Assembly: GCA_965208105.1 (NCBI GenBank) | Contig: OZ242318.1 | Span: 1,792,001 to 1,856,000, forward strand | DNA from: Candidatus Latescibacterota bacterium | GTDB lineage: Bacteria > Latescibacterota > UBA2968 > UBA8231 | Direction: 5' to 3' | DNA: 64,000 nucleotides | Shown here: in pieces, positions 31,559 through 55,644 of the stretch | Layout: each line of letters opens with the position of its first letter | Position numbering within the stretch: the first letter of the stretch is position 1 | Notes under the pieces: generated by a model | Told to the model about the DNA's origin: nothing | Database searches by the model: none | The model's input: the letters and a program-made list of their open reading frames with translations, nothing else | Position numbers and translations under genes: made by a program

Positions 31559-31608
31559 AAATCCGTCATTGAGGACAGGCTTCCCTCCAGCCGGGGATCG
31601 AGGATCGG

Positions 31609-33161: not shown

Positions 33162-33303
33162 TGCCTTCCTCCTGTGCCGGCACCAGCAGGCGGCCAGGGA
33201 ACCGCCACCATGCCGCGACCCTCCCGGAAACCAGGCCTCTCCGGGCTCGACGGGTACCGCAGCGGGTGAAAATCGAATCCTCGACAAATCATATTGTAGA
33301 GAT

Positions 33304-37988: not shown

Positions 37989-38456
37989 ATTTCCAGGTCT
38001 GTATAGAGTCACCAGGAAGCCGCCCAGAGCGGCCAGAAGAATTCCCAGCACAAACGGCCAGCGCAGTGCACCCAGCCCGGCGGCGGGAGGATGCACCGCC
38101 AGGGCCAGGAATGCGTTGACCACGGGTGCGCCGGCGAAGACGATGGACATGACCACGCTGGGCGTTCCCCGGGCCCCGAAGGCGAGCAGAACTCCCAGGG
38201 CACCCAGGGCGCCCGCAATGCCAGCCGCTGTTGACCACCCCGCTCCCTTGGCCGAGAAACTCCAGGAGGCCCCCCCAATCCACAGCAGGACTGCCGACCC
38301 TGCCACCGCGGTCAGCATATACGCGACTCCCACGAAGAAGTAGGCCTTGTAACGTCCGAAAACCGGATCTCCCATGGCCAGTTGCCCCGTGTGCAGTAGA
38401 ACCCCGTAGCACCCCCACGCGCCAACCGCAATCAGAGCATAAATCATCCAGGTCAT
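37986..38456 (-). CDS. Small integral membrane protein (5 TM, DMT/EamA-like half domain)
   Basis: Hydrophobic helices, 'WG.YG..LH.G', 'G.P..VM.IVFAGAP.VNA'. Confidence 0.65.
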   Translation of the reverse strand: MTWMIYALIAVGAWGCYGVLLHTGQLAMGDPVFGRYKAYFFVGVAYMLTAVAGSAVLLWIGGASWSFSAKGAGWSTAAGIAGALGALGVLLAFGARGTPSVVMSIVFAGAPVVNAFLALAVHPPAAGLGALRWPFVLGILLAALGGFLVTLYRPGN

Positions 38457-38589
38457 CGCCGGACTCCCTTCGCTGTTTCTATTCCCCGCGACGCGGCCAT
38501 GCGCAGCGAAATTCCCTTGCAGACCGGCCAGTCGGGGGATCAGGGTGAACTTGCACTGCCGATTTCAACCTTCCTCCACGGAGGGATAC

Positions 38590-38754
38590 TAGTGCCTGCT
38601 TGCGTAAGTAAGCGTACGAACGAGGGCGCAGAAGCGCCCGGCTCGCAAGGCGCCTGAGCGAGTCGTACCTGGAGTGTACGGCGAGGGAGGGCAACGCCGC
38701 GAGCCGGGATGCAGCGGCGGCCGAATTCACGCGGAATTGCGCAAGCAGGCACTA
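38590..38754. repeat. ERIC-like palindromic element/MITE, copy 2 (165 bp)
   Basis: Terminal inverted repeats CTAGTGCCTGCTTGCGTAA / TTGCGCAAGCAGGCACTAG (18 of 19 match). Same core as copy 1. Confidence 0.8.
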
Positions 38755-41507: not shown

Positions 41508-41728
41508 TGCTTTGCCTCCCCGTCGGAGTCCAGATGGCCGGGCCAGGCACAGGTGACCAGCAGCACCATCAGCAGGGCGGCCACCAGGCAGAAGCCGATG
41601 TGATAGAGCAGGCCGATGGGCAATCCCAGAACGAATCGAGAATCGTGCCAGAACCACAAGTCGTTGTGCAGGAAATAAAGGACGACTAGGGATAGATAAA
41701 GTAGTTTGCGGATAGATGAATTCTTCAA
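41504..41728 (-). CDS. DUF3311-like small 2-TM partner of SSS transporter
   Basis: 'LH.D.W.W......LGLP..L.YH', located directly upstream of the SSS gene. Confidence 0.75.
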   Translation of the reverse strand: MKNSSIRKLLYLSLVVLYFLHNDLWFWHDSRFVLGLPIGLLYHIGFCLVAALLMVLLVTCAWPGHLDSDGEAKQ

Positions 41729-41750: not shown

Positions 41751-42986
41751 TCAAAGGCCCAGCTCCCGACTTGCAGGCAGCCGGCACATCTGTGCCATCG
41801 GAGCGAATATGGAGTTCACGTCATCCTTGAAGATATCGCCGCTGAGGATGTCGATGACCCCCTGCTTGCACTGCGGATACTGTCTCAAGAACCCGGCGAA
41901 GCTGAACTTCCTGGTGTAGAATGCGTAGACCAGCTTGCGCACGGCCTCCATCCCCGCTGCGAACTCGGGGCCGAAGCCGCCCAATTGGGCTGGGCCGAAA
42001 TCCCCCTTTTCAAAGGCGCCGAGAATGGCGTCCGCCGCCCATTCCCCCGACTTGAGGGCCAGGAGAACACCAGAGGAATAAATGGGATCCAGGAATCCGA
42101 AGGCGTCGCCGACAAGGACCCAGCCATGGCCGGCGATGCGGTCGGCTCGATAGGAGAAGTCCCGGGTCACCTTGACCGGAAATACCTGCCGGGCACCGGC
42201 CAGGCGCCGCTTCAGAGCGGGACACCTTTCGACCTCCCGGTCGAAAATTTGCTGTGGTTCCTCCCGGCGGCCCTGCAGCAGATAGTGCAGCGACCCGACC
42301 ACCCCCACGCTCACCCGGTCGTCCGGAAGGGGTATGTACCAGAACCACGAATCCTCGTTCCTGGTGTGGAGGACGAGGGTGGCGCCGGCGTCCATGCCGG
42401 GGTCGCGCAGGCCCCCTTCGAAGTGGGTGTAGATCGACGCCTTCTTCAGCTCGGGCTCCGTGGTCTTGATCTTCAGCTTGCGCGCAATCAAGGCGCTCTG
42501 GCCCGTCGCGTCGACCACCACCTTCGCCCCGAACTCCTCCGAACGGCCCCCTGCGCCCCGGGCTAGCACCCCAACCGCCCGGTCCCCTTCGAATCGCACC
42601 TCCCGGACGTTGACCCCGCGCCGCACCTCCGCGCCCTTCCCGGCGGCGTTGTCGAGCAGAATCTGGTCGAACTCGCTGCGCAGGACCTGCCAGGTCATCG
42701 AGCTTTCGTGGGGATTGGTCTCGAAGAAGTAGAAGGGCCTGGAGCCTCTGCCCGTCCGGGAGAAAAACTGGACGCTGTATTTCTCGGGGAAACGGCCGGC
42801 CTTCAACTTGTCCAGCACACCAAGCCTTTCCAGGGTCCAATACGTTCCCGGCATCAGGGACTCGCCGATCTTGAAACACGGTCCCGGCGCCCTCTCCAGC
42901 AGCATCACCCTGAGTCCCTGCTCGGCCGCGAGGGCCGCCACGGTGCTTCCCGCCGGCCCGCCCCCGACGACGACGACGTCATTCAA
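41751..42986 (-). CDS. FAD-dependent oxidoreductase, flavin-dependent halogenase-like
   Basis: 'GGGPAG', 'KIGESL', 'FPEKY' (halogenase Lys position), 'WFWYIP' (WxWxIP), 'GDAFGFLDPIYSSGV'. Confidence 0.8.
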   Translation of the reverse strand: MNDVVVVGGGPAGSTVAALAAEQGLRVMLLERAPGPCFKIGESLMPGTYWTLERLGVLDKLKAGRFPEKYSVQFFSRTGRGSRPFYFFETNPHESSMTWQVLRSEFDQILLDNAAGKGAEVRRGVNVREVRFEGDRAVGVLARGAGGRSEEFGAKVVVDATGQSALIARKLKIKTTEPELKKASIYTHFEGGLRDPGMDAGATLVLHTRNEDSWFWYIPLPDDRVSVGVVGSLHYLLQGRREEPQQIFDREVERCPALKRRLAGARQVFPVKVTRDFSYRADRIAGHGWVLVGDAFGFLDPIYSSGVLLALKSGEWAADAILGAFEKGDFGPAQLGGFGPEFAAGMEAVRKLVYAFYTRKFSFAGFLRQYPQCKQGVIDILSGDIFKDDVNSIFAPMAQMCRLPASRELGL

Positions 42987-44305
42987 CGACTGTTCCTCCT
43001 CATGGGTGCTCCATCCGGCTCGGCATTCCAGCGGCGGTCCACGACACGCCTGGCCTTGAATTCAAAGCGCGGCAACGACCCTCCTGGAACGATCTCGACC
43101 TCCACCCGCAACCCCAGGACACGGCGAAACTCCCTGGCGATGGCCGGTCCTGTCCCCTCCCCGTTGCCCCCGGCAACCTCCACCTGGATCCTGAGCTCGT
43201 CGAGCTCCCCGCGGCGGTAGGCCTCCACCGCGAACTCACCCACCACTGGAAAGCGCCGCACGATATTCTCGATGGCGCTGGGATAGACCACCGTGCCGCG
43301 GATGACGAGGGCGTCGTCCATGCGGCCGACCACTCCTCCCGCAAGGCGCTGCAACGAGCGGCCACAGGAACAGGGGTGGCTGTGCAGCCGCACCCTGTCA
43401 CCGGTGCGATAGCGAATGGCAGGCATGCCTGCGCGACCCAGGTTGGTGATCACCAGCTCGCCCTCGGCGGCCGCCTCTCCCGTACCGGGGTCCACCACCT
43501 CGAAGATGAACTCGTGCTCGTTGAGATGCATACCTTCTCTCGCCCCGCACTCGAACCCCCACGCCCCCACCTCGGTGGCACCGGCGTGGTCGAAGCACCG
43601 GGCGCCCCAGGCCTCCTCGATGCGCTTCCTCGTCGCCCCCATACCGGCTCCGGGCTCACCAGCGTGAATGGTAGTCCGCACCCTGGAGTCCGCGAGGCTG
43701 ATGCCCGCCCCGGCGGCGATCTCGGCCAGGTGCAGAGCATAGGTGGGGGTGCAGACCACCACCGTGGCTCCTTCCTCCACAATGGCCCTCACCCGCGACT
43801 CGGAGTCCATCCCCCCGCCCGGAATGGCAAGGGCCCCGACCAGCCGCGCGCCCTCATATCCGCTCCAGAAGCCGATGAAGGGGCCGAAGGAGAAGGCGAA
43901 GAAAATGCTGTCGCCCGCCCCCACTCCGGCGCCCGCGTAGACCGCCGCCCAGCAGCGCGCCCACCACCGCCAGCAGTCTTCCGTATCCAGCCAGCGCAGG
44001 GAGGACCCGGAGGTTCCCGATGTCCGGTGAATGCGGACGTAGCGCTGCAGGGAATAGGTGAGGTTGGAGCCGAACGGGGGATGGTCCAACTGGTCAGCAC
44101 TGAATTCATCCCTCGTGGTGAAGGGCAGAGAGCGGTAGGTTTCGAGGCTGTGCACATCTTGCGGTCTTTCGATTCCCGCCCCATTGAGCTTGCGGCGGTA
44201 GAAGGCATTGGTCTCCAGAATGGGGGCGAGCATTTCCTGCAGTCGGCGCAACTGCTCCCGCTCCAGGTGTTCGCGATGGGAAGGCACCACCATAGCGGCG
44301 CTCAT
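42983..44305 (-). CDS. Phenylacetate-CoA ligase (PaaK)-like adenylate-forming enzyme
   Basis: 'LPFT', 'TSGTSG', 'TPTYAL', 'AGEPG', 'HAGATE', 'RYRTGD', 'GR.DD...IRG..V.PS.IE'. Confidence 0.88.
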   Translation of the reverse strand: MSAAMVVPSHREHLEREQLRRLQEMLAPILETNAFYRRKLNGAGIERPQDVHSLETYRSLPFTTRDEFSADQLDHPPFGSNLTYSLQRYVRIHRTSGTSGSSLRWLDTEDCWRWWARCWAAVYAGAGVGAGDSIFFAFSFGPFIGFWSGYEGARLVGALAIPGGGMDSESRVRAIVEEGATVVVCTPTYALHLAEIAAGAGISLADSRVRTTIHAGEPGAGMGATRKRIEEAWGARCFDHAGATEVGAWGFECGAREGMHLNEHEFIFEVVDPGTGEAAAEGELVITNLGRAGMPAIRYRTGDRVRLHSHPCSCGRSLQRLAGGVVGRMDDALVIRGTVVYPSAIENIVRRFPVVGEFAVEAYRRGELDELRIQVEVAGGNGEGTGPAIAREFRRVLGLRVEVEIVPGGSLPRFEFKARRVVDRRWNAEPDGAPMRRNSR

Positions 44306-44363
44306 TCGACCCACATGGCCCTGCCGGATCCATGGGCATCCACCACGCCGGGCGAGGGAACCA

Positions 44364-45638
44364 TCAGCCCGATCCCTTCAAATCCAGGCAGATGATCTGC
44401 TCCTCGTTGCGCAGGTAGAGCCTGCCCCTGGCCAGGGCCGGCATGGTCCAGCATTTTCCGCTCAGCACCTGGGCACTGGCTTTCTCTACAAATCCCTCCG
44501 GGGTCGCCCGGGCGAGGGCCAACCTGCCACTTTCCCCGAGGATAATCAGATGTCCGTCGGCGACTATCAAGGTGCCCTTGCCAAAGCCGCGGTGCCTCCA
44601 CCGCTGGGCGCCGCTGGCGGCATCGATGCACTTCAGAATCGCGTTGTCGAAACCGTACAGGTGATCCTCGTGCAGCACCGAAGAGGAAAACTGGTTCTTC
44701 ATCACCCGGCCGCTCCAGACTTCCTGGACTTCAAGGCCGCCTTCAACCACGTCGACCTTCACCATGGCAGCCCCCTTGTCGTATCCGGAGGAAATGAAGA
44801 TTCTGTCGGGGGGGACGAAAATCGGAGTGGCGGCATTGACATCGTAGCTCGTGTCCCAGGGATAGGTCCAGTAGACGCGGCCTTCCGCCGGCGAGACCGA
44901 AGCCAGTCCCATGGCGGTGAAAAAAACGATCTGGCGAACTCCGCCCGCGCTGACCGAAATCGGCGACGAGTAGGCTGATTTGCCCGCCGCCGCAGTCCAG
45001 ACCAGGTCGCCGGTTTCCTTGTCGAAGGCGGCGATGGTCTGCCCCGCGTCCGACCTGGCCAGAGGGTTCGCCCAGGACCTTCCCTCCGGTCCACCTGTCT
45101 CGACCAGGAGGAGTTCTCCTTCGACCAGTGGAGAGGCGCAATATCCCCACCTGGGAGTTTTGCCGCCGAACCTCTCTTTCAGATCGCACTCCCACAGCAA
45201 CTGGCCGCTTTCGGCGTTCAAGGCGGTGAGCCTGCCGCGGGCGCTGACAGCGAAGACCCGGCCGCCGTCGACGGCCGGGGTGGAACGCGGGCCATGGCCT
45301 CCCTGGTGGTCCTCGAAGATTTCGTCCGACTCGAACTTCCAGATCTCCTTGCCCGTCTCCGCGTCCAGGCCGATGACGTATTCGGCGCCATCCCGGGCGA
45401 ACATGGTAAAAGCGCGTCCCCCGTCAACCGCAATGGCGGAGAAGCCTTCTCCCGCCTGAAACCGCCACAAAGTCTGCGGTCCCCCAGGGGGCCACGTCTT
45501 GAGCAATCCGGTCTCGGGAGATACTCCGTCCCGTTGGGCGCCGCGCCACTGCGGCCATTCATCTCCGGCCTCGGAACGGGACTCGGCCACGGACAAAAGG
45601 ACACCTGTCAATCCAATCAATAAGATCCTTCGCTGCAT
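44364..45638 (-). CDS. Secreted PQQ-binding-like beta-propeller protein (copy 4)
   Basis: Signal peptide, 'WPQWRG..RDG.S', blades 'LDAETGK.IW', 'GPRSTP', 'YSSP', 'P.LA.GRLYLR'. Confidence 0.85.
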   Translation of the reverse strand: MQRRILLIGLTGVLLSVAESRSEAGDEWPQWRGAQRDGVSPETGLLKTWPPGGPQTLWRFQAGEGFSAIAVDGGRAFTMFARDGAEYVIGLDAETGKEIWKFESDEIFEDHQGGHGPRSTPAVDGGRVFAVSARGRLTALNAESGQLLWECDLKERFGGKTPRWGYCASPLVEGELLLVETGGPEGRSWANPLARSDAGQTIAAFDKETGDLVWTAAAGKSAYSSPISVSAGGVRQIVFFTAMGLASVSPAEGRVYWTYPWDTSYDVNAATPIFVPPDRIFISSGYDKGAAMVKVDVVEGGLEVQEVWSGRVMKNQFSSSVLHEDHLYGFDNAILKCIDAASGAQRWRHRGFGKGTLIVADGHLIILGESGRLALARATPEGFVEKASAQVLSGKCWTMPALARGRLYLRNEEQIICLDLKGSG

Positions 45639-45669
45639 TGCGACCTCCCGGATTCTCCTGCACCGCATT

Positions 45670-47019
45670 TCAGGTATAGCGGGCGTTGCGGTAGCGTGGA
45701 TGATAGAACTCAGGCAACAGCTGATCCACCCGGAGCAGCCCCTCGCGCGTCAGCTCGACTTCTTCCGCATCCCAGGCCAGCATCCCTTCGTCATGCAACT
45801 TTGCGAATGCCCTCCGGTAAGCTTCGAGGACATCCACGCCGAACTTATCCCGGAAATAGCTTCTCGCCAGCTTCCCGAGCTTCAACTGCAGGATCATTTC
45901 CCGGGTAAGGCGCTCCTCGGCGCTGGTGGCAAAGGCGCGGTCGAGGGGCAACCGACCTTCCGCCAGGGCGGCGATATAGCCGTCCCAGTCGGCGGCATTC
46001 TGATAGTGCAGCCCTCCAAGGTGAGAGAAGGAAGCCACTCCGGCCCCGATCATGTCGCTGCTCCGCCACAGCGCATCCCGGTATACGAAGGAGCATTTCC
46101 GGCCTTTTTTCACCATGGTATAGGCGCTGGAAACCTCGTATCCGGCCGCCTCGAGACGCTCGAAGGCATGGTCGTGCCACGACCGCTTGGTTTCCCAGTC
46201 AGCAAACCGGCTCTCCTGCCCTCCCCCCGCCAGCGCCGCCCTGGAATAGATCGTGTTGAAGGGCAATTCCATCTGATACACGGTCACGCTGTCCGCATCC
46301 ATCTCGATGGTCTTCTCCACCGTGTCCTTCCAGGTCTCCCAGGTCTCTCCCACCATCCCCGCAATCAGGTCGACGTTCACCTGATCGAATTCGAGGGCCT
46401 TGATCCACGGAGCCACGGCAAAGACTTCGCCGGAGAGATGGGCCCTGCCGTTTTCCCGCAAAATGTCGTCGTTGAAATTCTCCACTCCCAGGCTCAGCCT
46501 GGTGACGCCGATGTCCTTTATGGCTTCCAGCTTTGCCCGGGTCAGGGTCCCGGGCTCGCATTCGAAGGCCACTTCCTCCGCCCCGTCCCAGGGCCGGGCC
46601 GCTTTGATCCGCCGAACGAGGCCCCGCAAATCTCTGCTGCCGATGAAGGAAGGGGTTCCTCCCCCGAAGTAGACGAAGCGCAAGGTCCTCCCCGCAGTCC
46701 GCGGCATGGCTGCGTAGATCTCCACCTCCCTGGCCAGGGCATCGAGGTAGCTGCGGATCTCGGCGCCGGTCTTGTCGACGTAGACGCGGAAATAGCAGAA
46801 CTTGCAGCGCCTGCGGCAAAACGGAATGTGCAGATACAGTCCCAGGTCCGGCGGGGACGGACCGGGAGGAGATCCGAGGACCTCCTTCACACGGGGAAGG
46901 CTTTCCCTGCTCCAGAATGAATAAGGCGGATAGTTGGAGACGAAGACGCTGCCGACATCCGTCTCCACCGCCGCAGTCGGCGTGGTAGCCGGATCCGATT
47001 GCACCTGGGGGTTACTCAT
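45670..47019 (-). CDS. HemN-like radical SAM protein
   Basis: 'LYLHIPFCRRRCKFCYF' (CxxxCxxC), 'YFGGGTPS', 'RLSLGV', 'NVDLI.G', 'G.GV.SF', HemN_C-like C-terminus. Confidence 0.9.
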   Translation of the reverse strand: MSNPQVQSDPATTPTAAVETDVGSVFVSNYPPYSFWSRESLPRVKEVLGSPPGPSPPDLGLYLHIPFCRRRCKFCYFRVYVDKTGAEIRSYLDALAREVEIYAAMPRTAGRTLRFVYFGGGTPSFIGSRDLRGLVRRIKAARPWDGAEEVAFECEPGTLTRAKLEAIKDIGVTRLSLGVENFNDDILRENGRAHLSGEVFAVAPWIKALEFDQVNVDLIAGMVGETWETWKDTVEKTIEMDADSVTVYQMELPFNTIYSRAALAGGGQESRFADWETKRSWHDHAFERLEAAGYEVSSAYTMVKKGRKCSFVYRDALWRSSDMIGAGVASFSHLGGLHYQNAADWDGYIAALAEGRLPLDRAFATSAEERLTREMILQLKLGKLARSYFRDKFGVDVLEAYRRAFAKLHDEGMLAWDAEEVELTREGLLRVDQLLPEFYHPRYRNARYT

Positions 47020-48127
47020 TCTCTGGCTCCAGCTCGCCGAAACAGAAGAGGATTCCCTCCTCCGAGCCCACGACCAGCCTGCCTCCCGCGATACTGGGCG
47101 AGGCGGTTATGGACGATCCCGTCACGAATTCCCATACCTGCTCTCCAGACTCCATGTCGAGGGCGCCGAGCACCCCTCCCGTGGTCGCGAAAAAGACCCG
47201 CTCGCCGGCGATGACAGGAGAGGAATCCAGCCTCGTCTTCGCCGCAAAGGACCACAGAAGCTCACCGCCGGGGGCATTGAAGGCGCGCACCATCCTGTCC
47301 CTGCCCGCGACGACGATTCTCTCCCCGGTTACCGCGGCCGACGCGTAGAAGGGAAAGGACCGCAGGGGATCCTTGAAACGCCAGAATATCCTGCCGCCGG
47401 TCAAGTCGATGCCCAGCACCTCGTCGGAGAAGGTTCCCACGTAGACGCGGCCGCCGGCCACCGCCGGAGAAGCGCCGACGTAAGCTCCCAGGTCGATCCT
47501 CTTCTCCTCGGTGCCGTCTTGCAGGTCGACGAGGTGCAGAAAACCGTCGCAGCCTCCGACGACGACCGTGTTTCCGGACAGCGCCGGCGTTCCATGAATA
47601 TATCCATCCGTCTCCAATTTCCAAATCAGGGTTCCGGCCCCGGCGGACAGACAGTACAGATGGTGGTCATAGGATCCGAATATAATCCGGCCGGCCGAAA
47701 AATTCGCCGAAGAAATTATGCCTGCATCGGTGTGGAAGCTCCACCTGGGCTCGCCGGACCCGGCATCCACCGCGTGGAAGAGCCCGGACTCGTCTCCAAA
47801 GTAGACCGCGCCGGAGTGCACGGCCGGTGAGGACTTTATCTGGTCCGATGCCCGGTATCTCCATTTCAGCTCCCCGCTTTCGAGATCAATGGCATATAGA
47901 TAGCCATCCAGGGAGCCGACGTAGGCCGTCCCTTCCCATAGCGCGGCGGTCGACTCGATGCCCTCTCCCGCCGCGAAGGTCCACAACAGCCCGGGACGGG
48001 AGGTCACGCCTCCTTCCGCCACCCCCGTCAGCTGGGGATTGCCGCGAAAACTGTTCCAGCGGTCCTGGGCGAGGACGATTTGCCCCGGAATGGCGAGAAC
48101 GGCGATCCAGAGGAATTTCCCGACCAT
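47012..48127 (-). CDS. Secreted PQQ-binding-like beta-propeller protein (copy 3, regular 8-bladed BamB-like)
   Basis: Signal peptide from the ATG at 48127, eight regular 'SSP.V..G.VY.GS.DG.LYA.D..SG...W.F' repeats. Confidence 0.88.
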   Translation of the reverse strand: MVGKFLWIAVLAIPGQIVLAQDRWNSFRGNPQLTGVAEGGVTSRPGLLWTFAAGEGIESTAALWEGTAYVGSLDGYLYAIDLESGELKWRYRASDQIKSSPAVHSGAVYFGDESGLFHAVDAGSGEPRWSFHTDAGIISSANFSAGRIIFGSYDHHLYCLSAGAGTLIWKLETDGYIHGTPALSGNTVVVGGCDGFLHLVDLQDGTEEKRIDLGAYVGASPAVAGGRVYVGTFSDEVLGIDLTGGRIFWRFKDPLRSFPFYASAAVTGERIVVAGRDRMVRAFNAPGGELLWSFAAKTRLDSSPVIAGERVFFATTGGVLGALDMESGEQVWEFVTGSSITASPSIAGGRLVVGSEEGILFCFGELEPENE

Positions 48128-48185
48128 ATCGCTCCCTTCCGCCTTTCCCTGAAATGAGGTTCCGGAAGCGGTTTCGACGCGGCCT

Positions 48186-49301
48186 TCAGAACGACGATTC
48201 GAAGAGTTGCAGCCAATCTTCCTCATCCAACGGACGCGGATTGAACTTCCCGGTCCACTGAGAGGCGGCCTCACCGGCCAGGCCCGGCAGGTCGGAGCTG
48301 CCGACCCCGCAATCCCCAAGGCGCCGAGGCAGCGCAGCCGCAAGCTGCAATTCAACGATGCGCTCGACCAATTTCTCCGCGCTGCCTTGCAGGTCCCGGT
48401 ACAATTCCTCCACAACGGCGCTGTTGAAGCGGACCACGGCAGGAAGCATGATCCCGACGGCTTCCCCGTGGGGGATTCCGTACGCGGCCGTCAACGGATT
48501 GGCGCAGGCGTGGGCCGCGCCCAGCATGGAGCTCTCGATGGCGGCGCCGGCCAAGTGCGCCCCCAGCAACATCCGGCCCCATGGCTCCACCTCCCCAGAT
48601 GGGTCCAGGACCGACTCGAAACTTGGTTCCAGCAGGCGCCAGGCCTCCCTGGAGAACATGGCGGAGACCGGGTTCCTCCGGGTGGTCACGAAGCTCTCCA
48701 GGGCGTGAGCGATGGCGTCGATCCCGGCGGCCGCGACCACCCGCGGCGGCGCGCTTTGGACCAGCAGAGGATCGAGAATGACGGCGCCGAACCGCGCCTT
48801 CTCGTCGCCGCAGGCCATTTTCCGATGGGTATCCGCCTGGGCGATCAGCGCGAAGGACTGAGCCTCGCTGCCGCTGCCCGCGGTAGTCGGGATCCCCATG
48901 GACGGCAGCATGGGAAGGTCCGCCCTGCCCGCGCCCCAGTAGTCCTCCATGCGGCCGCCCTGGGTGAGGAGGAAGTTTATTCCCTTGGCGCAGTCCATGG
49001 CACTGCCTCCGCCGAGACCTGCAATGAAGTCGATGCCATCCTGCTGCCTTGCAAAATGGACGCCCGCTTCCACCTCGCGCGTCGTCGGGTTTTCCACCAC
49101 CCCGTCGAACACGAAGTGCTCGATGGATTCGCGCTGCATGGACCGGATGGCCCTGAGGGCAATGCCAGCCCGGGCGACGCCGGGGTCGGTGACGAGCATG
49201 ACCCGGCGCCCCCCCAGCTTCCTGATCAGGCTCCCCAACCCATCCAGGGTATTCGCACCGAAAACCAGGTGCGCGCCAGGATGAAGGACAAATGGACCCA
49301 A
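48186..49301 (-). CDS. Iron-containing alcohol dehydrogenase
   Basis: 'GGGSAMD.AK', 'PTTAGSGSE', metal ligands 'DA..HA.E', 'H..A', 'HG'. Confidence 0.93.
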   Translation of the reverse strand: MGPFVLHPGAHLVFGANTLDGLGSLIRKLGGRRVMLVTDPGVARAGIALRAIRSMQRESIEHFVFDGVVENPTTREVEAGVHFARQQDGIDFIAGLGGGSAMDCAKGINFLLTQGGRMEDYWGAGRADLPMLPSMGIPTTAGSGSEAQSFALIAQADTHRKMACGDEKARFGAVILDPLLVQSAPPRVVAAAGIDAIAHALESFVTTRRNPVSAMFSREAWRLLEPSFESVLDPSGEVEPWGRMLLGAHLAGAAIESSMLGAAHACANPLTAAYGIPHGEAVGIMLPAVVRFNSAVVEELYRDLQGSAEKLVERIVELQLAAALPRRLGDCGVGSSDLPGLAGEAASQWTGKFNPRPLDEEDWLQLFESSF

Positions 49302-49308: not shown

Positions 49309-50733
49309 TCAGCTCCCTAGAGCCTGGAGAGCTCTCTGGCGGTAGAGAAATTCGAAGAGGTTGCCCTCGTGGGGCTGGTCCCATGAAACCCGGTTGGTGC
49401 CGATGGGACCCAGGTTCAGGCGCTCGATCTGGGCGCAACTCAGCAGCTCCACGATCAACTCCCGGTTCCCGGTGATCGCCGTGGCGACCAGGGTCGGACC
49501 GATGCGCTTGAGGATCTGCTCCTGGGGGACCTGTACCACGCTGACGAAGGGGAAGAGAAATTCCGCGTTGGCCAGCGGGTGCTCGCCATCCTCGCACCAG
49601 AGGACGGTGGGCAGCAGAAAGGTGCAGCCCTCCCTTTCGACTATCCGGTCCCCACTCCTGAACCGGGCGGTAAGGTCCTCCGCGCCCCCCATCTCGAGCC
49701 GGGCGTCGATCAGCTCCGTCAGTCTCTGCGCCACCTCCGGCCGAGCGAAGGCCGCGACCCGCGCCTGCGGATGGTCCAAAGGCAGAGCTTCAATCCGCGC
49801 CAGGCGCTGCGCCAGGGCGGTGGCGATCTCCAGCCCGTGGCGCGGCACCCAGATGCCGGAAGCGTTGATGCACGACCTGCCCCCGTTCTCGGCCACCGAG
49901 GCCACCATGAGATCCAGATGGTCTTCCCAGCTCTCGGCCTCGTCCGTACCGAAAATGATCTTGCTGCGCCCCGGCCCATGGATCTGCACCCGGGGATCCC
50001 CGGCCCAGGACTCCACCGTGGCGTCGCCTCCGAACAGCATGGAACGGCCGCAGCGCAGGAGAATTTCCGAGGCTCCGGCATAATCGGTGGGGTAGTATCC
50101 GAATGCCTCGGGAGGACAGCCCGCGGCCATGAAAGCCCGGGCAAGACGCAACGGCGTCCAGGGTTCCTCCCTGCCGGGTTTGAGCATCACCGGGACCTTC
50201 AGCGCTAACGAGGGGGCCCAGAGAGAGTGCACCCCGGGAGAATTGCTGGGGAGCACCACCCCCAGGGCGCGGGTCTGGCAGATGTAGCTCAGGGGGCGCC
50301 CGTGATCGAGGTCCCATCCTCCGTCGAGGACCCCGAGGTGGAGCCCGCGCGTCAGACCGTCCAGCACCGCATCCATCTGCGAGAGAACCTGGTGAATCTT
50401 CTCCATGTTGCCGCGGCAGAGGGTCTCGGGGAGACCCGTGGTGGCCGAGGTCTGGCGCACGTAATCCTCCGGCCCCTGGGCATCCTCGTCCACGGGAAGG
50501 TCCGCCTCCATGAACAGGCGGGCGGCTTCCCCGCAGATTCCCAGCAGCTGCGCCGCCGAGAGGTCGGCGAGGGCGCGCTGGTTCTCCGCCGCGGAGGCCA
50601 GGTCCCTCGCCACCAGTCCCCTGTTGGCCTGGCTGACCAGGGCGACGGGCTCACCCGAGCCCAGGTGGCACAACCTGGCCGTATCCAGGCTCCTGTAGGG
50701 GGTCCCCGCGCGCAGTATGGGGATGTGCAACAT
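49309..50733 (-). CDS. Aldehyde dehydrogenase-fold protein, GriD/EhpG-like reductase subunit
   Basis: 'VLPSNSP', 'KP...EP.T', catalytic 'NGGRSC.NAS', 'E.LFPF'. 'HGPGRSK' replaces the usual 'ELGGK'. Confidence 0.82.
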   Translation of the reverse strand: MLHIPILRAGTPYRSLDTARLCHLGSGEPVALVSQANRGLVARDLASAAENQRALADLSAAQLLGICGEAARLFMEADLPVDEDAQGPEDYVRQTSATTGLPETLCRGNMEKIHQVLSQMDAVLDGLTRGLHLGVLDGGWDLDHGRPLSYICQTRALGVVLPSNSPGVHSLWAPSLALKVPVMLKPGREEPWTPLRLARAFMAAGCPPEAFGYYPTDYAGASEILLRCGRSMLFGGDATVESWAGDPRVQIHGPGRSKIIFGTDEAESWEDHLDLMVASVAENGGRSCINASGIWVPRHGLEIATALAQRLARIEALPLDHPQARVAAFARPEVAQRLTELIDARLEMGGAEDLTARFRSGDRIVEREGCTFLLPTVLWCEDGEHPLANAEFLFPFVSVVQVPQEQILKRIGPTLVATAITGNRELIVELLSCAQIERLNLGPIGTNRVSWDQPHEGNLFEFLYRQRALQALGS

Positions 50734-50734
50734 T

Positions 50735-51823
50735 CTAATATACCCCCACCACCACCGACTCCTGCAGCTCCGACAGCAGGCGCAGATTCCTCACCCCGTC
50801 CCAGGGATAGGGAGCGATGGGCGCCACCCGCTCCGCCTCGTCGCGCTCGAGAAAGCGGGGCATGAAGAATTCCTTCGTCAGGGTGGTCAGCATGACCCGG
50901 CCCCTCTCGCCGTAGCCCACCGCATGGTGCGGAGGAGCGGTGGAGACCAGCTCGATGACCGCCCGCGGCTGGGGGGGATAGTAGGTGATGGCGTATCCGT
51001 CAGCCGGGTCGAAGGGCCTGGAGCAGGCCAGCCCCATCAGGGTGTTGCCATACGCGGGCACGAAGTCCACACCCGGGGCGAGCTCCTCGCGGGCGAAGCG
51101 ATGGAACTGGGCGTCCATCTCGGTGCCGCCGCAGAAAATCCCGGTGATCCCTGCCCTGGACAAGGAAATCTTCCCGCCCAGGGACTCCAGAAGCCTCGGT
51201 GTGGTGAACAGGCAGCGCACATTCTCGTGGGAGCGGAGGACCTGCAGGGCCTGGTCGACGACGTGGGTTTTGTACTCCTCCAGCTCGCGGTGCTTGCCGT
51301 GCTTTATCAGCTTGTTCACCCAGCGCGGGTCCAGGTCCACCATGAAGCAGATCCCTCCCCTGAGCTGGGCGAGATACTCGACGGCCAGGCGCAGGCGCCG
51401 CGGCCCGCTCGGTCCCAGCATCAGCCAGTCTGCCCCGCGCGGAAAGGCCTCCTCGGAGAGAGTCGCGCTGAACAACTCGTAATCGATGCGGAAATCGCGG
51501 ACGTTGAGGCGGTACTTGGGTACGCCGGTGGACCCCCCGGTTTCGAAAACGGAGACAGGCTCGCCGGCCAACCCCCGGGGCAGCCAGCGCCGCACCGGCC
51601 CCCCGCGCAGCCACTCGTCCTGGAAATGGCCCAGGAGCTTCAGGTCGCGGTAGCCGCCGATCTCGCGGACAGGGTCGAAGTCCAGTCCCGCGGCGAACTC
51701 TAGCCAGAAGGGACAGCCGGTCCGCTCTCCGAAGTGCCAGCCGACCATCTCGCGAACGTGGGCGTCCAGGCTTCGCCTCGCCGCCTCGATCTCCTCCGCC
51801 GAAGGGCCCTTCGCCCCGTTCAT
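50735..51823 (-). CDS. GriC/EhpF-like atypical adenylate-forming enzyme
   Basis: 'WHF..TG.PFWL', 'FDP', 'ETGGSTGVPK', 'D.DPRWV', 'TTP', 'GGTE', 'YG.T', 'V.YGERG.V', 'ERD.A.R', C-terminal 'GVY'. This motif series matches, from recall, EhpF (Pantoea phenazine cluster) and GriC (grixazone cluster). Confidence 0.82.
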   Translation of the reverse strand: MNGAKGPSAEEIEAARRSLDAHVREMVGWHFGERTGCPFWLEFAAGLDFDPVREIGGYRDLKLLGHFQDEWLRGGPVRRWLPRGLAGEPVSVFETGGSTGVPKYRLNVRDFRIDYELFSATLSEEAFPRGADWLMLGPSGPRRLRLAVEYLAQLRGGICFMVDLDPRWVNKLIKHGKHRELEEYKTHVVDQALQVLRSHENVRCLFTTPRLLESLGGKISLSRAGITGIFCGGTEMDAQFHRFAREELAPGVDFVPAYGNTLMGLACSRPFDPADGYAITYYPPQPRAVIELVSTAPPHHAVGYGERGRVMLTTLTKEFFMPRFLERDEAERVAPIAPYPWDGVRNLRLLSELQESVVVGVY

Positions 51824-51835: not shown

Positions 51836-53263
51836 CTATTCCCCCTCGATAGCAAATAGCATGTTGCGGCTGGCGATGTAGAGCACCCCGTCGCGGGCCG
51901 TCGGCGTGGTGTATACCGCACTGCCCATATTGACCTCGTAGAGCAGCTCCAGCTTCCTGCCCGCCCTCAGCACGGCCACGTCGCCGTCCTCGTCGCCGAT
52001 GTAGACCTTGCCGTCGGCCACGAGGGTCGATCCCCAGACCGCCGCGAAGGTATCGTAGGTCCAGTATTTCTCCCCGCTGCGGGCGTCGAGGCAATAGACG
52101 AATCCGCTGAGGTCCGCGGTGTAGAGCAGCCCGTCGCTGATGGCCGCGGTGGACAGGGTGCGGTTGTAGTCCCGGTCCCCCAGATGCCAGACCACCCCGC
52201 TGGCACTGACGTCCCCTCTCCCCTTCGCGTCGATGGCCCACAGGTGGCCTACCCCTTCCCCGTGCTCCGGATCCTGCCCCACCCCGACGTAGACCTTGTC
52301 ATCATAGAACACGGGGGTCGAGATAATGGCGTTCCGCGTTCCCCTTCCCCCCAGTTCCCACACGGAATCCTTGGGATTGCAATCGAACTTCCAGATGAGC
52401 TCCCCGGTTTCCGGCTCCATGGCGTAGATCCAGCCGTCGCCTCCCGGAAAGATCACCTGGCCCTTGCCCTCGACCACACCGTAGGCAGGATTGGACCACT
52501 GCCCGTGAAGGATGCGGTCCGCCGGGGAGTTGTCTTCCCACACCACCCTGCCGCTCTCCTTGTCCACCGCGACAAAGCTGGGGGCAAACGGAGTGGGAAT
52601 GTGGACATGCCCCTCGTCCACCCCGTTTCCGGTGACGACGAAGATCAGATTGCCGACGCCCAGAGGCGAACAGGTGGCCAGGTTGTGGGGAAAGACATCC
52701 AGCTCCGCGATCATGTCCAGCTTCCATATCACGTCGCCGTCGATGGCGCTTGTGTCCTTTTCCGAGACGAAGGGACCATCGTTTTCGCCGTCCAGGAAGC
52801 CTTCCGTATCGACGCACACCAGCTCGCAGCGGTTGGAGACATAGTAAAGGCGGTCGCCTTCGATGAAGGGGGTGGAGCAGACGCCCTGCCTGGGCCAGTC
52901 GTTGACTCTCCCCGCGGGGAGCTTGGTGTGGGTGGACTGCCACAGAAAGCGGCCGTCCGCCGCCCCGAAGGCCATGATCACTCCGCGGTCGCCCTTCAGC
53001 CCCGGGTTGCGCATACCCTGGTTGTTGGTGCCGACGAAGACCTTGTCCCCGATGATCACGGGACCGGCGTAGGTTTGCGACCCCAGGGGCGCCGTCCACT
53101 TGATATTCAACCCGGTGGCCGGGTCCCATCTCTCGGGCAAACCTCTCGCCTCCAGCGCCAGGTTGCGCGCCGGTGTGAACCCCCACATCGCGGTTTCCTC
53201 GGCGGCGGCGCCCATGGCCGCGGCGCAGACCGCGCCGATCGCCGCCCTCGCAAATCGTCCCAT
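51836..53263 (-). CDS. Secreted PQQ-binding-like beta-propeller protein (copy 2) with acidic insertions
   Basis: Signal peptide, 'NIKW.A.LGSQTY', 'G.CSTP', 'VTGNGVDE.H', 'HGQWS.P', 'GQDPEHGEG.G'. Confidence 0.82.
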   Translation of the reverse strand: MGRFARAAIGAVCAAAMGAAAEETAMWGFTPARNLALEARGLPERWDPATGLNIKWTAPLGSQTYAGPVIIGDKVFVGTNNQGMRNPGLKGDRGVIMAFGAADGRFLWQSTHTKLPAGRVNDWPRQGVCSTPFIEGDRLYYVSNRCELVCVDTEGFLDGENDGPFVSEKDTSAIDGDVIWKLDMIAELDVFPHNLATCSPLGVGNLIFVVTGNGVDEGHVHIPTPFAPSFVAVDKESGRVVWEDNSPADRILHGQWSNPAYGVVEGKGQVIFPGGDGWIYAMEPETGELIWKFDCNPKDSVWELGGRGTRNAIISTPVFYDDKVYVGVGQDPEHGEGVGHLWAIDAKGRGDVSASGVVWHLGDRDYNRTLSTAAISDGLLYTADLSGFVYCLDARSGEKYWTYDTFAAVWGSTLVADGKVYIGDEDGDVAVLRAGRKLELLYEVNMGSAVYTTPTARDGVLYIASRNMLFAIEGE

Positions 53264-53265
53264 GG

Positions 53266-55464
53266 TCAATCTCCCGCCCATACCTTGACGTTGTCGTAGT
53301 GGATTTCAGCGGGTGAGTATCCGTACAACCCCGGACTCCCCTCCCGGTTCGGCAGGGGGTCCCGGGCGGTGATCGTCCACTCCCCGGGCTCCTCTTCGTT
53401 CCGCCGCCAGACCTTGCCCCTGACGATGGCCACTTCATCCCCCACCTCCACCTCCATCTTCATGGTGTACCAGACGCCGGGCTCCCAGTCGAAGGGGGAG
53501 GTAACGGCCATCCTCAGGTCCGAAGCCCAGGACCGGATCTGCAACTGCTGGTGGTTCCCCATCATATCCAGGGTGTAGCGGTTGGCGATCAATCCCATGT
53601 CAGGGCGCCTGCGCTTGTCCCAGGTTCCCATCAAATCGGCCTGAACGGTATACCCTCTCATGCCGGGAGGACCGAGGTAGACATTTGAACGGTGCAGCCC
53701 CACCCTGGCCGGCGGCTTGACCAGCACCTTGTTGCCGTGCAGGTCGCGCACCTTGAACTTGGTTCCCGCGCCGACCCAATGCGCCGGATTCCCACCTTCC
53801 TCCACCTCCTCGAAATCCTCGCTCCAGGGCAGCCCGGGGACGACCCGCACCCGCGCCCTGCCGCCTGCTCCCTCGGCCGCGGCCCGGACTATCCCCGCCT
53901 GGGCGCCAGCGCTACCGTTCAGAATCAGCCTCCCACCCGCGCCCATACTTCCCTCCAGACCCTCGAGGGTCCACTCGACCGCCGGCGCCTCCACGGAACG
54001 CCCTTCGTGGTCGAAGGCGAGCACTTCGAAGCGGACCGTATCCCGAGGCTGCGCCACCACCTCCGCCGGAACCACGAGCAGGGAGGCGGCCGGCCTCTCT
54101 TCGCCTGCGGCCTCCACTGGGAATTCCGGCACCACGGCCGGCCCGGCCACCGGCCCGGCCTCCCTATCCCCCAGGCAGTACAGCCCCTCTTCGGTGGCAA
54201 AGTAGATGCGGCCATTGGCCAGAGCCGGAGAACCGAAGATTTCGGCGGGGCGTCCTTCCCTGGTCCTTATCTCATCCCTGTCCAGTTTCAGGGGATGGCC
54301 TCCCCGGACTTCGAGAATGTGGAAGGATCCGTTGACCTCGGTGGCGTACAGCTTGCCGTCGGCCCAGACGGGGGATCCCCTGCCTACGGTTCCCAGGCCA
54401 TACTGCCAGAGGTCCCTCCCCGTATCCGGGTCGAGGCAGTGCAGGTTGGCGCCGTTGTCCACCAGGTAGAGGCCGCCGCCGCCCATGGCCGGAGAGGAGT
54501 AGCCCACCGCGAACTCGTCATAGCGCCAGATTTCATGGGTGGCGGTGACGTCTCCCCTGCCGCCGCCGTCGATGCATACCACCCTGCCCATGGCGGTGTT
54601 GTCCACGTTTTCCTCGCTGTGGGCGGCATAGACGCGGCTGCCCTCCACCAGCACCGATGAATTGATGCCGCGCCTGCTCAGCCGGAAACCCCACACCTTC
54701 TCCCCCGTTCGCGCCGCCATGGCGTAGATGGCGCCGTCGGCGTTGCCGCCGATCAGCAGCCGCCGCCCCCCGATGGCGGCCGCCACCGGAGTGGAGTAGG
54801 TGGTGTCCAGCGGGCGTCCCCCCGGCGCCGCAACCCACACCACCGCGCCGCTGCGCTTGTCGAAGGCAAAGTACCGATGCCTGGGCACGGCCTGGTCTCC
54901 CCAGCCGAGATTGAGAAAACTGATTATTACCTGGTCTTCGTGTACCACGGGAGTATGGACCCGCCCGCCGTAGCCGGAGATGCGGCCGAACTCCTCGGTG
55001 AGGGAACGGGACCACAGGACCTCCCCCTCGGGGTCGAGGCACAAAAGGAGGCCGCCGACCCCGTGGACGTAGATGTTCCCGGTCTCCGGATCACCGGCGG
55101 GGCTGGCCCACCCCACCCTGTTGAACGGAATGGTCGTGTGAAAGACGTTGAAGCGGTGTTCCCAGAGCAGCTTCCCGCTCGCCGCGTCGAAACAGGCCAC
55201 CAGCTCCTGCTCGGTGATGCCCTCTCCCCCGCGGCCGGTGACGCATACCCTGCCGTCGAGGACGACCGGGGTTGAGCGGCCGCAGAAATCCGCCTTCCAT
55301 ATCAGGTTTTCACCCTCGGCAGACCAGCGCGAAATAAGGCCCGTTTCCATGGACGCGCCATTCTGCCAGGGACCCCTCCAGCCGGGCCAGTCGGCAGCGC
55401 CGGCGGCCGGGGGACTCGCCGCCGCGGAGAGGAAGAATACCAGAGAAACTGCCTTGATTCGCAT
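53266..55464 (-). CDS. Secreted PQQ-binding-like beta-propeller protein (copy 1) with C-terminal Ig-like and jelly-roll-like domains
   Basis: Signal peptide, 'DWPGWRGP', propeller blades, Ig-like 'LVVPAEV....G', C-terminal 'WYTMKM.V...RGKVW.R...EP..W...GSPGLYG...YDNVKV'. Confidence 0.8.
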   Translation of the reverse strand: MRIKAVSLVFFLSAAASPPAAGAADWPGWRGPWQNGASMETGLISRWSAEGENLIWKADFCGRSTPVVLDGRVCVTGRGGEGITEQELVACFDAASGKLLWEHRFNVFHTTIPFNRVGWASPAGDPETGNIYVHGVGGLLLCLDPEGEVLWSRSLTEEFGRISGYGGRVHTPVVHEDQVIISFLNLGWGDQAVPRHRYFAFDKRSGAVVWVAAPGGRPLDTTYSTPVAAAIGGRRLLIGGNADGAIYAMAARTGEKVWGFRLSRRGINSSVLVEGSRVYAAHSEENVDNTAMGRVVCIDGGGRGDVTATHEIWRYDEFAVGYSSPAMGGGGLYLVDNGANLHCLDPDTGRDLWQYGLGTVGRGSPVWADGKLYATEVNGSFHILEVRGGHPLKLDRDEIRTREGRPAEIFGSPALANGRIYFATEEGLYCLGDREAGPVAGPAVVPEFPVEAAGEERPAASLLVVPAEVVAQPRDTVRFEVLAFDHEGRSVEAPAVEWTLEGLEGSMGAGGRLILNGSAGAQAGIVRAAAEGAGGRARVRVVPGLPWSEDFEEVEEGGNPAHWVGAGTKFKVRDLHGNKVLVKPPARVGLHRSNVYLGPPGMRGYTVQADLMGTWDKRRRPDMGLIANRYTLDMMGNHQQLQIRSWASDLRMAVTSPFDWEPGVWYTMKMEVEVGDEVAIVRGKVWRRNEEEPGEWTITARDPLPNREGSPGLYGYSPAEIHYDNVKVWAGD

Positions 55465-55644
55465 GACCCGCTTCCCTACAGGCTCAGCCTGGTTTGACAT
55501 GGATTTGGGGACTGGATATACTCGGGGTCCCAGCCCCCCGGGTTGGGGCAGGCAGACGGAGGGCATGGTCCAGGCCTGCCCTCTGCCGCCATCTGGATTT
55601 GCCTCAGGTTCAAGTGCCTTACCTGGAAATCGGGGAGAGAAATC

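Follow-up and report, generated by a model that had tools for sequence, protein, structure and literature searches.

The window analysed here is a stretch of 64,000 nucleotides from a Candidatus Latescibacterota bacterium (assembly GCA_965208105.1, contig OZ242318.1), and our subject is a pair of adjoining genes, both on its minus strand, at 50735-51823 and 49309-50733. The former is translated into P0001, a protein of 362 residues, and the latter is an open reading frame (ORF) of 474 residues, P0002. Their junction reads ...GTA TAT TAG A ATG TTG..., with one base between the stop codon and the next ATG. A first-pass annotation had credited 50735-51823 with a series of seven motifs and had placed a gene of aldehyde dehydrogenase (ALDH) fold 1 bp downstream. 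We find all seven motifs in the translation, namely WHFGERTGCPFW (residues 29-40), ETGGSTGVPK (94-103), DLDPRWV (163-169) and GGTE (232-235), and in the C-terminal part YGERG (304-308), ERD (326-328) and GVY at the C-terminus. The gene after the one-base spacer likewise has the predicted character, as its product matches Pfam family PF00171 and its model superposes on solved ALDHs. The two features are as follows.

50735-51823, minus strand: adenylating subunit P0001 of the EhpF/GriC type, assigned by homology to EhpF (3l2k/3hgu) and by its motifs; ANL N-terminal domain only
49309-50733, minus strand: ALDH-fold reductase subunit P0002 of the EhpG/GriD type, assigned by PF00171, EhpG homology and an ALDH-fold model

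Judging from sequence comparison and structure modelling, these proteins probably work together as a two-component carboxylate reductase of the EhpF/EhpG (GriC/GriD) type that needs no carrier protein. Such an enzyme would turn a carboxylic acid into an aldehyde. The reductase activity is what we infer from homology, the pattern of motifs and active-site residues, gene order, conservation and a predicted interface.

The two subunits and their predicted complex

In a search of 177,635 PDB sequences, residues 20-362 of P0001 align with residues 21-366 of EhpF (E 8.6e-44; entries 3L2K, 3HGU and 3HGV), and a profile of 25 P0001 orthologues has EhpF as its sole match in the PDB (E 1.2e-50). The assignment to the EhpF family made in the first-pass annotation is therefore upheld, with both the sequence and the profile search matching EhpF alone and over its full length. 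The EhpF chain carries the same seven motifs (WHFSKETGSPFW, ESGGTTGAPK, DIDPRWV, GGTE, YGERG, ERD and EGVY), and because all seven recur in the aligned chain we regard them as family signatures and not as chance occurrences. No Pfam or NCBIfam model reaches its cut-off on P0001, the best being a sub-threshold AMP-binding match of 17 bits. The alignment runs to the last EhpF residue, and the orthologues have lengths of 357-378 residues; P0001 thus comprises the ANL N-terminal domain only, and stops where a C-terminal subdomain would start. An N-terminal domain without this subdomain is reportedly the defining feature of EhpF, as described with the structure by Bera et al. in 2010. The C-terminal subdomain of ANL proteins normally performs thioester formation on CoA or phosphopantetheine. 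Within the ANL P-loop of P0001 (ETGGSTGVPK, 94-103), residues T95-G100, P102 and K103 are invariant in 25/25 sequences.

A tblastn search of P0001 against plasmids gave 29 records at 30-39% identity, comprising the Pantoea ehpF gene, Streptomyces genes annotated as ‘arylcarboxylate reductase’ or ‘phenazine biosynthesis protein’, one Burkholderia gene and two haloarchaeal genes. One of the latter lies on plasmid 2 of Halalkalicoccus jeotgali (L003, 8511-12569), in a three-gene unit of symporter, EhpF-like gene and ALDH gene, with 38% identity to P0001, and the other lies on a Halomarina plasmid (39% identity).

P0002 scores 45.5 bits against the Pfam Aldedh family PF00171 (cut-off 23). It is 26% identical to Pantoea EhpG, which is encoded by the gene after ehpF (E 2e-35), and 28% identical to the partner ALDH of Halalkalicoccus (E 2e-31). 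Its AlphaFold model has a predicted local distance difference test (pLDDT) value of 91.3 and superposes on solved ALDHs with TM scores of 0.69-0.77, at 14-19% sequence identity. An AMP-binding gene with an ALDH gene after it is likewise found in Pantoea, Streptomyces goshikiensis, Burkholderia ubonensis and Halalkalicoccus.

The active site was read from an alignment of 38 ALDH orthologues, the one of the window together with 37 of related loci (the cluster has 43 members, of which five fell outside the length range of 440-520 residues and were left out), with EhpG and the Halalkalicoccus ALDH as outgroups and the residue register taken from a HMMER alignment with KauB. Cys288 and Asn164, which in that alignment match the catalytic Cys and the oxyanion Asn of classical ALDHs, are kept in 38/38 orthologues and in both outgroups. 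The position of the general-base Glu (Glu268-equivalent, ELGGKSP motif) is occupied by His252 in all 38, by Gln in EhpG and by Tyr in the haloarchaeal protein. We also see that K185 and E391, aligned with cofactor-contacting Lys and Glu residues, are invariant in 27/27 sequences. A nucleophile, oxyanion hole and cofactor site that are kept while the water-activating base is lost make up the pattern expected of a thioester-reducing, non-hydrolysing ALDH.

Prediction of a complex between P0001 and P0002 gave a score of 0.74 (individual runs 0.74, 0.74 and 0.77), against 0.00 for the best of three controls. Among solved complexes, 116 of 157 attain the calibration mark for this score, as do 2 of 215 mismatched pairs; this calibration is approximate, our own alignments having been used. 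Contacts agree between runs at 82% or above, the partner has a pLDDT of at least 91, and the P0001 chain reaches 88 in the complex run. The predicted interface is made up of residues 176-182, 210-217, 237-248 and 276-277 of P0001 and residues 15-17, 35-46, 222-226 and 242-246 of P0002. On the P0001 side the predicted contacts include the clade-invariant residues A238, Q239, F240, R242 and F243, and on the P0002 side the clade-invariant S34, Q35, A36, N37, G39, L40 and D44. Recall of a solved complex by the predictor is unlikely, since free EhpF is the sole relative of P0001 in the PDB. The model supports the view that P0001 and P0002 bind each other.

A widespread clade and the pairing of its genes

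A scan of 185,579 species genomes gave at least 601 stretches related to P0001, 600 of which were confirmed, so that the clade is present in at least 600 of these genomes; the neighbourhood counts below use the best 80 loci. At 64-76% identity to P0001, the 80 comprise 46 loci affiliated with Acidobacteriota, 16 from Poribacteria, five from Latescibacterota, three from Planctomycetota, two from Multivoradales, one from Gemmatimonadetes and seven that are other or unclassified. A word-indexed protein search with P0001 returned at least 8000 candidates, all of which passed; the best 120 of them, at 73-97% identity, are unnamed or called ‘hypothetical protein’ or ‘PaaK-like adenylate-forming protein’. 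Among 1.84 billion representatives clustered at 50% identity, 1440 matched P0001 at E<=0.001 and 251 at E<=1e-30, the best of these being mostly fragments. In these collections, the wider EhpF family is small and the clade of the window is very populous.

A quick maximum-likelihood tree of 54 rows, with the Shimodaira–Hasegawa-like approximate likelihood ratio test (SH-aLRT) as its only measure of support, gives P0001 a clade (98%) distinct both from that of EhpF (13 rows, 100%) and from the ‘arylcarboxylate reductase’ branch. Within the P0001 clade, the terminal branches have much reduced lengths (0.12-0.27, compared with a median of 0.62). P0001 and P0002 belong to an unnamed, highly conserved, slowly evolving and separate clade of the little-studied EhpF/EhpG family. 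Two loci from Blastocatellia (L043, 1023-6177, and L070, 1200-6415) hold tandem EhpF-like paralogues in the order copy 1, GT4 glycosyltransferase, copy 2, ALDH, and their copy 2 groups with more divergent representatives in the tree.

The literature that we found on two-component and arylcarboxylate reductases, on GriC-like and EhpF-like proteins and on LuxC/LuxE contains no description of the P0001 clade, and that on EhpF/EhpG consists of papers in a phenazine context. The enzyme type is already known; it is the breadth, conservation and gene partners of the clade that are undescribed in the literature found. The suggestion that the family has a broader, uncharacterised role is borne out by this unnamed clade in at least 600 species genomes.

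Gene neighbourhoods were counted by tblastn of the window proteins against the 80 loci. Among the 68 loci with at least 1.7 kb downstream, 37 have an ALDH gene within 300 nt and 17 have one at another position in the locus, and the other 14 have none. The last of these figures is one of several observations that weigh against a two-component reductase: 14 of 68 loci have no ALDH gene within their flanks. Several such loci from Bryobacterales have a gene for an iron-type alcohol dehydrogenase (Fe-ADH) directly after the EhpF-like gene, and no substitute reductase was found beside the EhpF-like gene in the ALDH-less loci, only a kinase, a transposase, a PIN protein and a MauG-like peroxidase. 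On Streptomyces plasmids (L001 and L084), genes annotated as ‘arylcarboxylate reductase’ are followed by a type I polyketide synthase (PKS) and have no ALDH gene; from this order, family members can pass the acyl group to other acceptors, and it suggests that some of them load a PKS. As for the protein itself, the AlphaFold model of P0001, made from a 25-row alignment, is weak (pLDDT 57.6), and without the ANL C-terminal subdomain P0001 also lacks the lysine that serves adenylation in other ANL enzymes. Further down the proposed route, the alcohol, glycoside and export steps rest on gene neighbourhood, and the Fe-ADH gene is missing from the shorter of the two gene architectures described below.

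If the two genes were mere neighbours, P0002 would oxidise aldehydes as an ordinary dehydrogenase does, and P0001 would act independently as an acyl-adenylate or CoA ligase. P0002 does have a generic ALDH fold and a generic Pfam match, and the 14 loci without a nearby ALDH gene fit such an arrangement. It is nevertheless very improbable in view of the His at the general-base position in 38/38 orthologues, the 1-bp spacing in the window, the ALDH gene within 300 nt in 37/68 loci and the pairing in four distant lineages. The predicted complex (0.74 against 0.00 in controls, on an approximate calibration) and the absence from P0001 of the subdomain needed for CoA thioester formation argue in the same direction. 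We retain the two-component reductase as the preferred reading.

The gene array and its partners

The window holds the pair in a single minus-strand array that runs from 55566 to 33304 with small gaps and overlaps. The other members of the array are listed here in their order along the minus strand.

53266-55566, minus strand: exported PQQ_2 beta-propeller PQQd (PF13360 155 bits; signal peptide)
51836-53281, minus strand: exported PQQ_2/BamB-like beta-propeller PQQc (PF13360 86.7 bits; signal-peptide-like N-terminus)
48186-49301, minus strand: iron-type (group III) alcohol dehydrogenase, candidate for the aldehyde-to-alcohol step (PF00465 144.5 bits; PF25137 104 bits)
47012-48415, minus strand: exported beta-propeller PQQb (PF13570 206 bits; cut-off 133)
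45670-47019, minus strand: HemN-like (class C) radical S-adenosylmethionine (SAM) enzyme (PF04055 and HemN_C; CRRRCKFC, a CxxxCxxC motif)
44364-45668, minus strand: exported PQQ_2 beta-propeller PQQa (PF13360 140.3 bits; signal peptide)
42983-44314, minus strand: PaaK-type aryl/acyl-CoA ligase (phenylacetate-CoA ligase in the PDB, E 1.9e-53; AMP-binding_C_2)
41751-42986, minus strand: flavin-dependent halogenase (PDB halogenases, E 2e-57 to 1e-44; motifs GGGPAGS and WFWYIP)
40038-41657, minus strand: sodium:solute symporter (PF00474 151 bits)
38752-40041, minus strand: GT4 glycosyltransferase (PF00534 99 bits; E-x7-E motif in EPKGLFVLE)
37986-38456, minus strand: small polytopic membrane protein of 156 residues (no Pfam or NCBIfam match)
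37387-37815, minus strand: 4HBT-type hotdog thioesterase (PF13279 39.6 bits; PF03061 34.4 bits)
36723-37415, minus strand: ATP-binding cassette (ABC) ATPase of the LolD/MacB/DevA type (TIGR02211 249 bits, below the cut-off of 307.75; DevA family 158.5 bits)
33304-36738, minus strand: large FtsX/MacB-type permease of 1144 residues (PF02687 in two stretches)

The Fe-ADH gene begins 7 bp downstream of the P0002 gene, and its product has an intact GGGSAMD cofactor motif and intact metal-binding His motifs. PQQa to PQQd are four paralogous propellers, all with signal-peptide-like N-termini. PQQd ends in an extension of about 200 residues that fits no family, its C-terminal 211 residues having no Pfam match, and the family matched by PQQb, PF13570, is the ‘beta-alanine-activating enzyme beta-propeller’ family. 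The true start of PQQb is probably the ATG at 48127 (MVGKFLW...), the median length of its orthologues being 395 residues. The radical-SAM enzyme has HemN and the methyltransferase NocN as PDB relatives (E ~1e-30), and the PaaK-type ligase matches the NCBIfam PaaK models below their cut-offs. The halogenase is nearest to phenol-/pyrrole-type enzymes (8zop, E 2.1e-57; also 5buk, CndH (3e1t) and PltA), and its WFWYIP is an instance of WxWxIP, which we take to be a halogenase signature; its presence in the cluster implies a halogenated product in the long form described below. We likewise take the E-x7-E motif to be significant for a GT4 enzyme.

Partner genes were scored in the 47 well-flanked loci (at least 9 kb on each side), where a match required at least 38% identity and at least 40% coverage. 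The ALDH gene is found in 35 of these loci, PQQc in 25, PQQd in 24, GT4 in 19, the ABC ATPase in 17 and Fe-ADH in 16. They are followed by PQQb (14), the FtsX permease (13), the radical-SAM enzyme (12) and the small membrane protein (6), and the rarest are the halogenase and the PaaK-like ligase (4 each), the symporter and PQQa (3 each). In the 10-kb flanks the GT4 and ABC counts are too low, since the long form has these two genes at distances of over 10 kb from the EhpF-like gene.

Two architectures predominate. The short one, mostly from Acidobacteriota, consists of the EhpF-like gene, ALDH, GT4, the ABC ATPase and an FtsX/MacB permease of 1115 residues. All four partners are present in 12 loci, with four more in which the permease is not within reach; the GT4 gene comes directly after the ALDH gene, and there is no Fe-ADH, halogenase or PaaK-type ligase. 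The long one has PQQd, PQQc, the EhpF-like gene, ALDH, Fe-ADH, PQQb, the radical-SAM enzyme and PQQa, with a TonB-dependent siderophore-type receptor, PaaK-like ligase, halogenase, symporter and GT4 as optional members. It is found in Poribacteria, Latescibacterota, Gemmatimonadetes and some Acidobacteriota and Planctomycetota, and the window has it in full. The TonB-dependent receptor (NCBIfam 275.8 bits, cut-off 223.5) was seen in about six loci by ORF clustering. In each of its 25 loci PQQc is directly upstream of the EhpF-like gene, and its conservation is close to that of the latter (42-76% identity across loci, mostly 58-76%). The small membrane protein has nine related loci from both architectures, and the thioesterase has only two. 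The orthologue of the large permease in L037 also has a MacB_PCD domain. On gene content, the pair forms the centre of a conserved set, to which a GT4 enzyme, a MacB-type ABC exporter and exported beta-propellers also belong.

One Bryobacterales locus without an ALDH gene (L068) has, at 11615-12757, a gene for a MauG-like di-haem cytochrome c peroxidase directly after PQQd, PQQc and the EhpF-like gene. MauG itself acts in the maturation of a protein-derived quinone cofactor.

An intergenic palindrome, about 166 nt in length, occurs in two copies within the array, at 37823-37988 and 38589-38755. The 97-nt core of one copy shares 86% identity with that of the other, and the inverted arms at the ends (24-27 nt) are 85-92% complementary. 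Each copy starts at a minus-strand stop codon, that of the small membrane protein gene and that of the GT4 gene, respectively. Its minus-strand RNA folds at -76 kcal/mol (z = -6.6), and none of 200 shuffles is as stable. There is no further copy in the window and none in the 80 related loci, nor is there an Rfam match; the element could be an insert resembling a miniature inverted-repeat transposable element or a repetitive extragenic palindrome, or an RNA stabiliser or terminator. For the window as a whole, there is no Rfam match and no tRNA genes were found. Consensus scans of 32.5-52.4 kb for promoters and terminators did not outperform shuffles (4 against 2.3 and 15 against 13.8, respectively).

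Neither a PP-binding (phosphopantetheine carrier) domain nor a reductase domain of the short-chain dehydrogenase/reductase (SDR) type occurs in any cluster protein. The proposal that the pair works without a carrier protein agrees with this, and the intergenic gaps are too small to encode one. The pair had also been placed outside any phenazine or grixazone cluster. For phenazines this stands, as Pfam and NCBIfam scans of the large ORFs of the window contain no genes of the PhzA/B, PhzE or PhzF type; for grixazone, no dedicated screen for griH and griI was made. Unlike the known examples, the window gave no genes of chorismate-derived aromatic pathways (phenazine, 3-amino-4-hydroxybenzoate (3,4-AHBA)) in these scans, which is a matter of context and not a catalytic requirement.

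The genes that flank the array are unlinked to it: gluconolactonase-like, M16 peptidase and AnmK genes are found in 0/80 loci, and isochorismatase-family and nicotinate phosphoribosyltransferase (NAPRTase)-like genes in 0/47. The latter two belong to an NAD-salvage group at 28795-33287 (minus strand), which comprises a glutamine-dependent NAD synthase, a gene resembling NAPRTase or quinolinate phosphoribosyltransferase, and an isochorismatase-family protein. A PhzD-like isochorismatase role for this last protein (32622-33287) was considered and rejected, given its NAD-salvage neighbours and its absence from all 47 related loci; it is likely a nicotinamidase, unrelated to the cluster. Elsewhere in the window, the plus strand carries a Bat/MoxR-type array at 13493-21639 (DUF4175 protein of 1115 residues, TPR protein, unassigned ORF of 420 residues, MoxR AAA_3 ATPase and DUF58/VWA protein) and a SUF iron-sulfur assembly operon at 21695-26854 (SufB, SufC-like ABC ATPase, SufD and SufS). 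SufB shares 84-88% identity with proteins named as Gemmatimonadetes or Latescibacterota, which puts the host close to these phyla. No ORF of 200 residues or more is present at 26854-28795, and the GC fraction is 0.52-0.58 at 1-4000 and 26001-30000, compared with 0.60-0.67 elsewhere.

Proposed pathway and comparison with known systems

In the reaction that we propose, P0001 would convert the acid to an acyl-adenylate with ATP, through its P-loop (T95-K103). P0002 would dock on P0001, and Cys288 would attack the acyl-AMP to give an enzyme thioester. With Asn164 stabilising the oxyanion, NAD(P)H would reduce this thioester to the aldehyde, the ALDH reaction run in reverse, and because His252 replaces the water-activating Glu the thioester would not be hydrolysed. 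Two distant fusions of the EhpF family, at 35-37% identity, bear on the product: P0230 (725 residues) has an N-terminal zinc-type alcohol dehydrogenase and P0201 (824 residues) has a class-III aminotransferase. These are natural acid-to-alcohol and acid-to-amine modules, respectively, and as both are fusions to aldehyde-consuming enzymes they point, together with the adjoining Fe-ADH gene, to an aldehyde. Fusions of EhpF-like and ALDH sequences were also seen, in several of 14 longer proteins and in one case including Fe-ADH, and were not counted: 13/14 are single-sequence clusters, every ALDH fusion among them, and as the genes are 1 bp apart such fusions may be read-through or wrong-code gene calls.

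The loss of the general-base Glu would fit any non-hydrolysing thioester chemistry, so P0002 might instead be an acyl acceptor or acyltransferase whose Cys288 passes the acyl group to a sugar, an amine or a protein with no hydride transfer. The GT4 enzyme, and hence sugar acceptors, is the commonest further neighbour, and some family members feed a PKS. We consider such a role improbable, because K185 and E391, aligned with nicotinamide-cofactor contacts, are invariant in 27/27 sequences, and because relatives fused to an alcohol dehydrogenase or an aminotransferase imply an aldehyde product. The Fe-ADH gene is moreover directly next to that of P0002, and GriD is described as a reducing subunit (PMC10179220).

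Taking P0001 and P0002 as a carboxylate reductase, the rest of the array can be given tentative roles. The Fe-ADH encoded 7 bp downstream would reduce the aldehyde to an alcohol, the GT4 enzyme would probably glycosylate it, and the MacB-type ABC system would export the glycoside towards the periplasmic beta-propeller proteins. Upstream of this, the symporter may import a probably aromatic acid, and tailoring of that acid would fall to the PaaK-type ligase, the thioesterase, the halogenase and the radical-SAM enzyme. This sequence of alcohol, glycoside and export, which is drawn from gene neighbourhood, is possible but doubtful.

The same genes might alternatively serve not biosynthesis but the catabolism, salvage or detoxification of an acid that is taken up and converted, with the acid entering through the TonB-dependent receptor and the sodium:solute symporter and then passing to aldehyde and alcohol. 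Symporter genes occur in the window cluster and in three further loci (L023, L030 and L047), and the TonB-dependent siderophore-type receptor in about six. The Halalkalicoccus plasmid has the order symporter, EhpF-like gene, ALDH gene, and its symporter is 31% identical to that of the window (E 3e-58). Yet the most conserved partners are the GT4 enzyme and the MacB-type exporter (ALDH, GT4, ABC and FtsX genes are together in 12/47 loci), the halogenase and the class C radical-SAM enzyme are of kinds typically met in biosynthesis, and ATP-dependent reduction would be costly for catabolism. An uptake role is for these reasons rather unlikely, and we continue with a biosynthetic one.

With some reserve, then, we suggest that an undescribed pathway may extend across these phyla, in which an EhpF-type reductase, a GT4 enzyme, a MacB-type exporter, PQQ_2 propellers and often a TonB receptor would yield a glycoside for export, built on a reduced and probably aromatic acid. 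If true, this would amount to a new class of secreted small molecules, possibly metallophore-like or signalling, in Acidobacteriota, Poribacteria, Latescibacterota, Gemmatimonadota and Planctomycetota, and the conservation of the adenylating subunit across phyla (64-76%) would stem from a substrate that is fixed and common to all, and from multiple protein contacts. To our knowledge, carrier-free two-protein carboxylate reductases are known from two antibiotic pathways only, and their activity has not been reconstituted from purified subunits. As this clade shows, the main home of the EhpF family is a conserved gene set in abundant, mostly uncultured phyla of soil, sediment and sponges, and not the aromatic antibiotics of actinomycetes and enterobacteria. 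The short EhpF-ALDH-GT4-ABC form in cultivable Acidobacteriota would be a tractable way to the product of a widespread orphan cluster. Among the cultured carriers of the pair is the isolate ‘Acidobacteria bacterium Mor1’ (CP011806.1, L029). The pair may itself be a compact acid-to-aldehyde biocatalyst, using ATP and NAD(P)H with no need of phosphopantetheinylation, and the predicted interface and the Cys288/Asn164/His252 pattern provide a concrete handle on how a reversed ALDH fold may act on an acyl-adenylate.

The window cluster resembles the ‘Halo_AMP’ clusters of sponge symbionts. According to the preprint that describes them (bioRxiv 10.64898/2026.08.03.742642), these contain a halogenase, a PaaK/BagE-like AMP-binding enzyme and frequent PQQ-like domains, along with radical-SAM enzymes, glycosyltransferases and ABC and TonB transporters, in Acidobacteriota, Latescibacterota and Poribacteria. 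This gene mix and taxon range match our long architecture. The halogenase and PaaK-type ligase are, however, both missing from the short EhpF-ALDH-GT4-ABC form, and the running text of the preprint has 0 mentions of aldehyde dehydrogenase and none of an EhpF-type pair as such.

The net reaction that we propose, acid to aldehyde with ATP and NADPH, is that of the NRPS-like (non-ribosomal peptide synthetase-like) carboxylic acid reductases of A-T-R organisation, such as Nocardia CAR and Lys2. Each of those combines a phosphopantetheinyl carrier with an SDR-type reductase in one polypeptide, whereas the present pair has no carrier and an ALDH-fold reductase. LuxE and LuxC of luminous bacteria would work alike: there, a carrier-free acyl-adenylating protein passes its acyl group to a reductase of the ALDH superfamily, which uses NADPH to give the aldehyde. 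The pair is not a member of that system, as neither protein matches the LuxE or LuxC Pfam families (presumably PF04443 and PF05893) even at E<=10, and the cluster has no LuxD-type transferase.

The logic of an AMP-forming subunit and an ALDH-like reducing subunit is shared with GriC/GriD, which in the grixazone pathway of Streptomyces griseus convert 3-amino-4-hydroxybenzoate to the aldehyde; by the description in PMC10179220, which cites Suzuki et al. 2007, GriC adenylates 3,4-AHBA and GriD reduces it. In the sequence comparison, RefSeq proteins named ‘arylcarboxylate reductase’, at 33-36% identity to P0001, served as a stand-in for GriC. The genes of that name that were inspected have a type I PKS next to them and not an ALDH gene, and they fall in another clade than P0001.

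EhpF and EhpG of Pantoea agglomerans, from D-alanylgriseoluteic acid biosynthesis (3HGU, 3HGV and 3L2K), differ from the window pair in their setting, which is one of phzA-G-type genes, whereas here the pair has a GT4 enzyme, a MacB-type exporter and exported beta-propellers around it. P0001 shares only about 30% identity with its counterpart and P0002 26%, the two systems lie in separate clades, and the first 90 residues of P0002, where the predicted interface is located, have no BLAST alignment to EhpG. Both subunits are nonetheless homologous over their full length, with the seven motifs in common. EhpF, like P0001, is a single-domain ANL protein that ends in GVY and is followed immediately by an ALDH gene, and EhpG, like P0002, has kept the catalytic Cys and Asn and dispensed with the general-base Glu.

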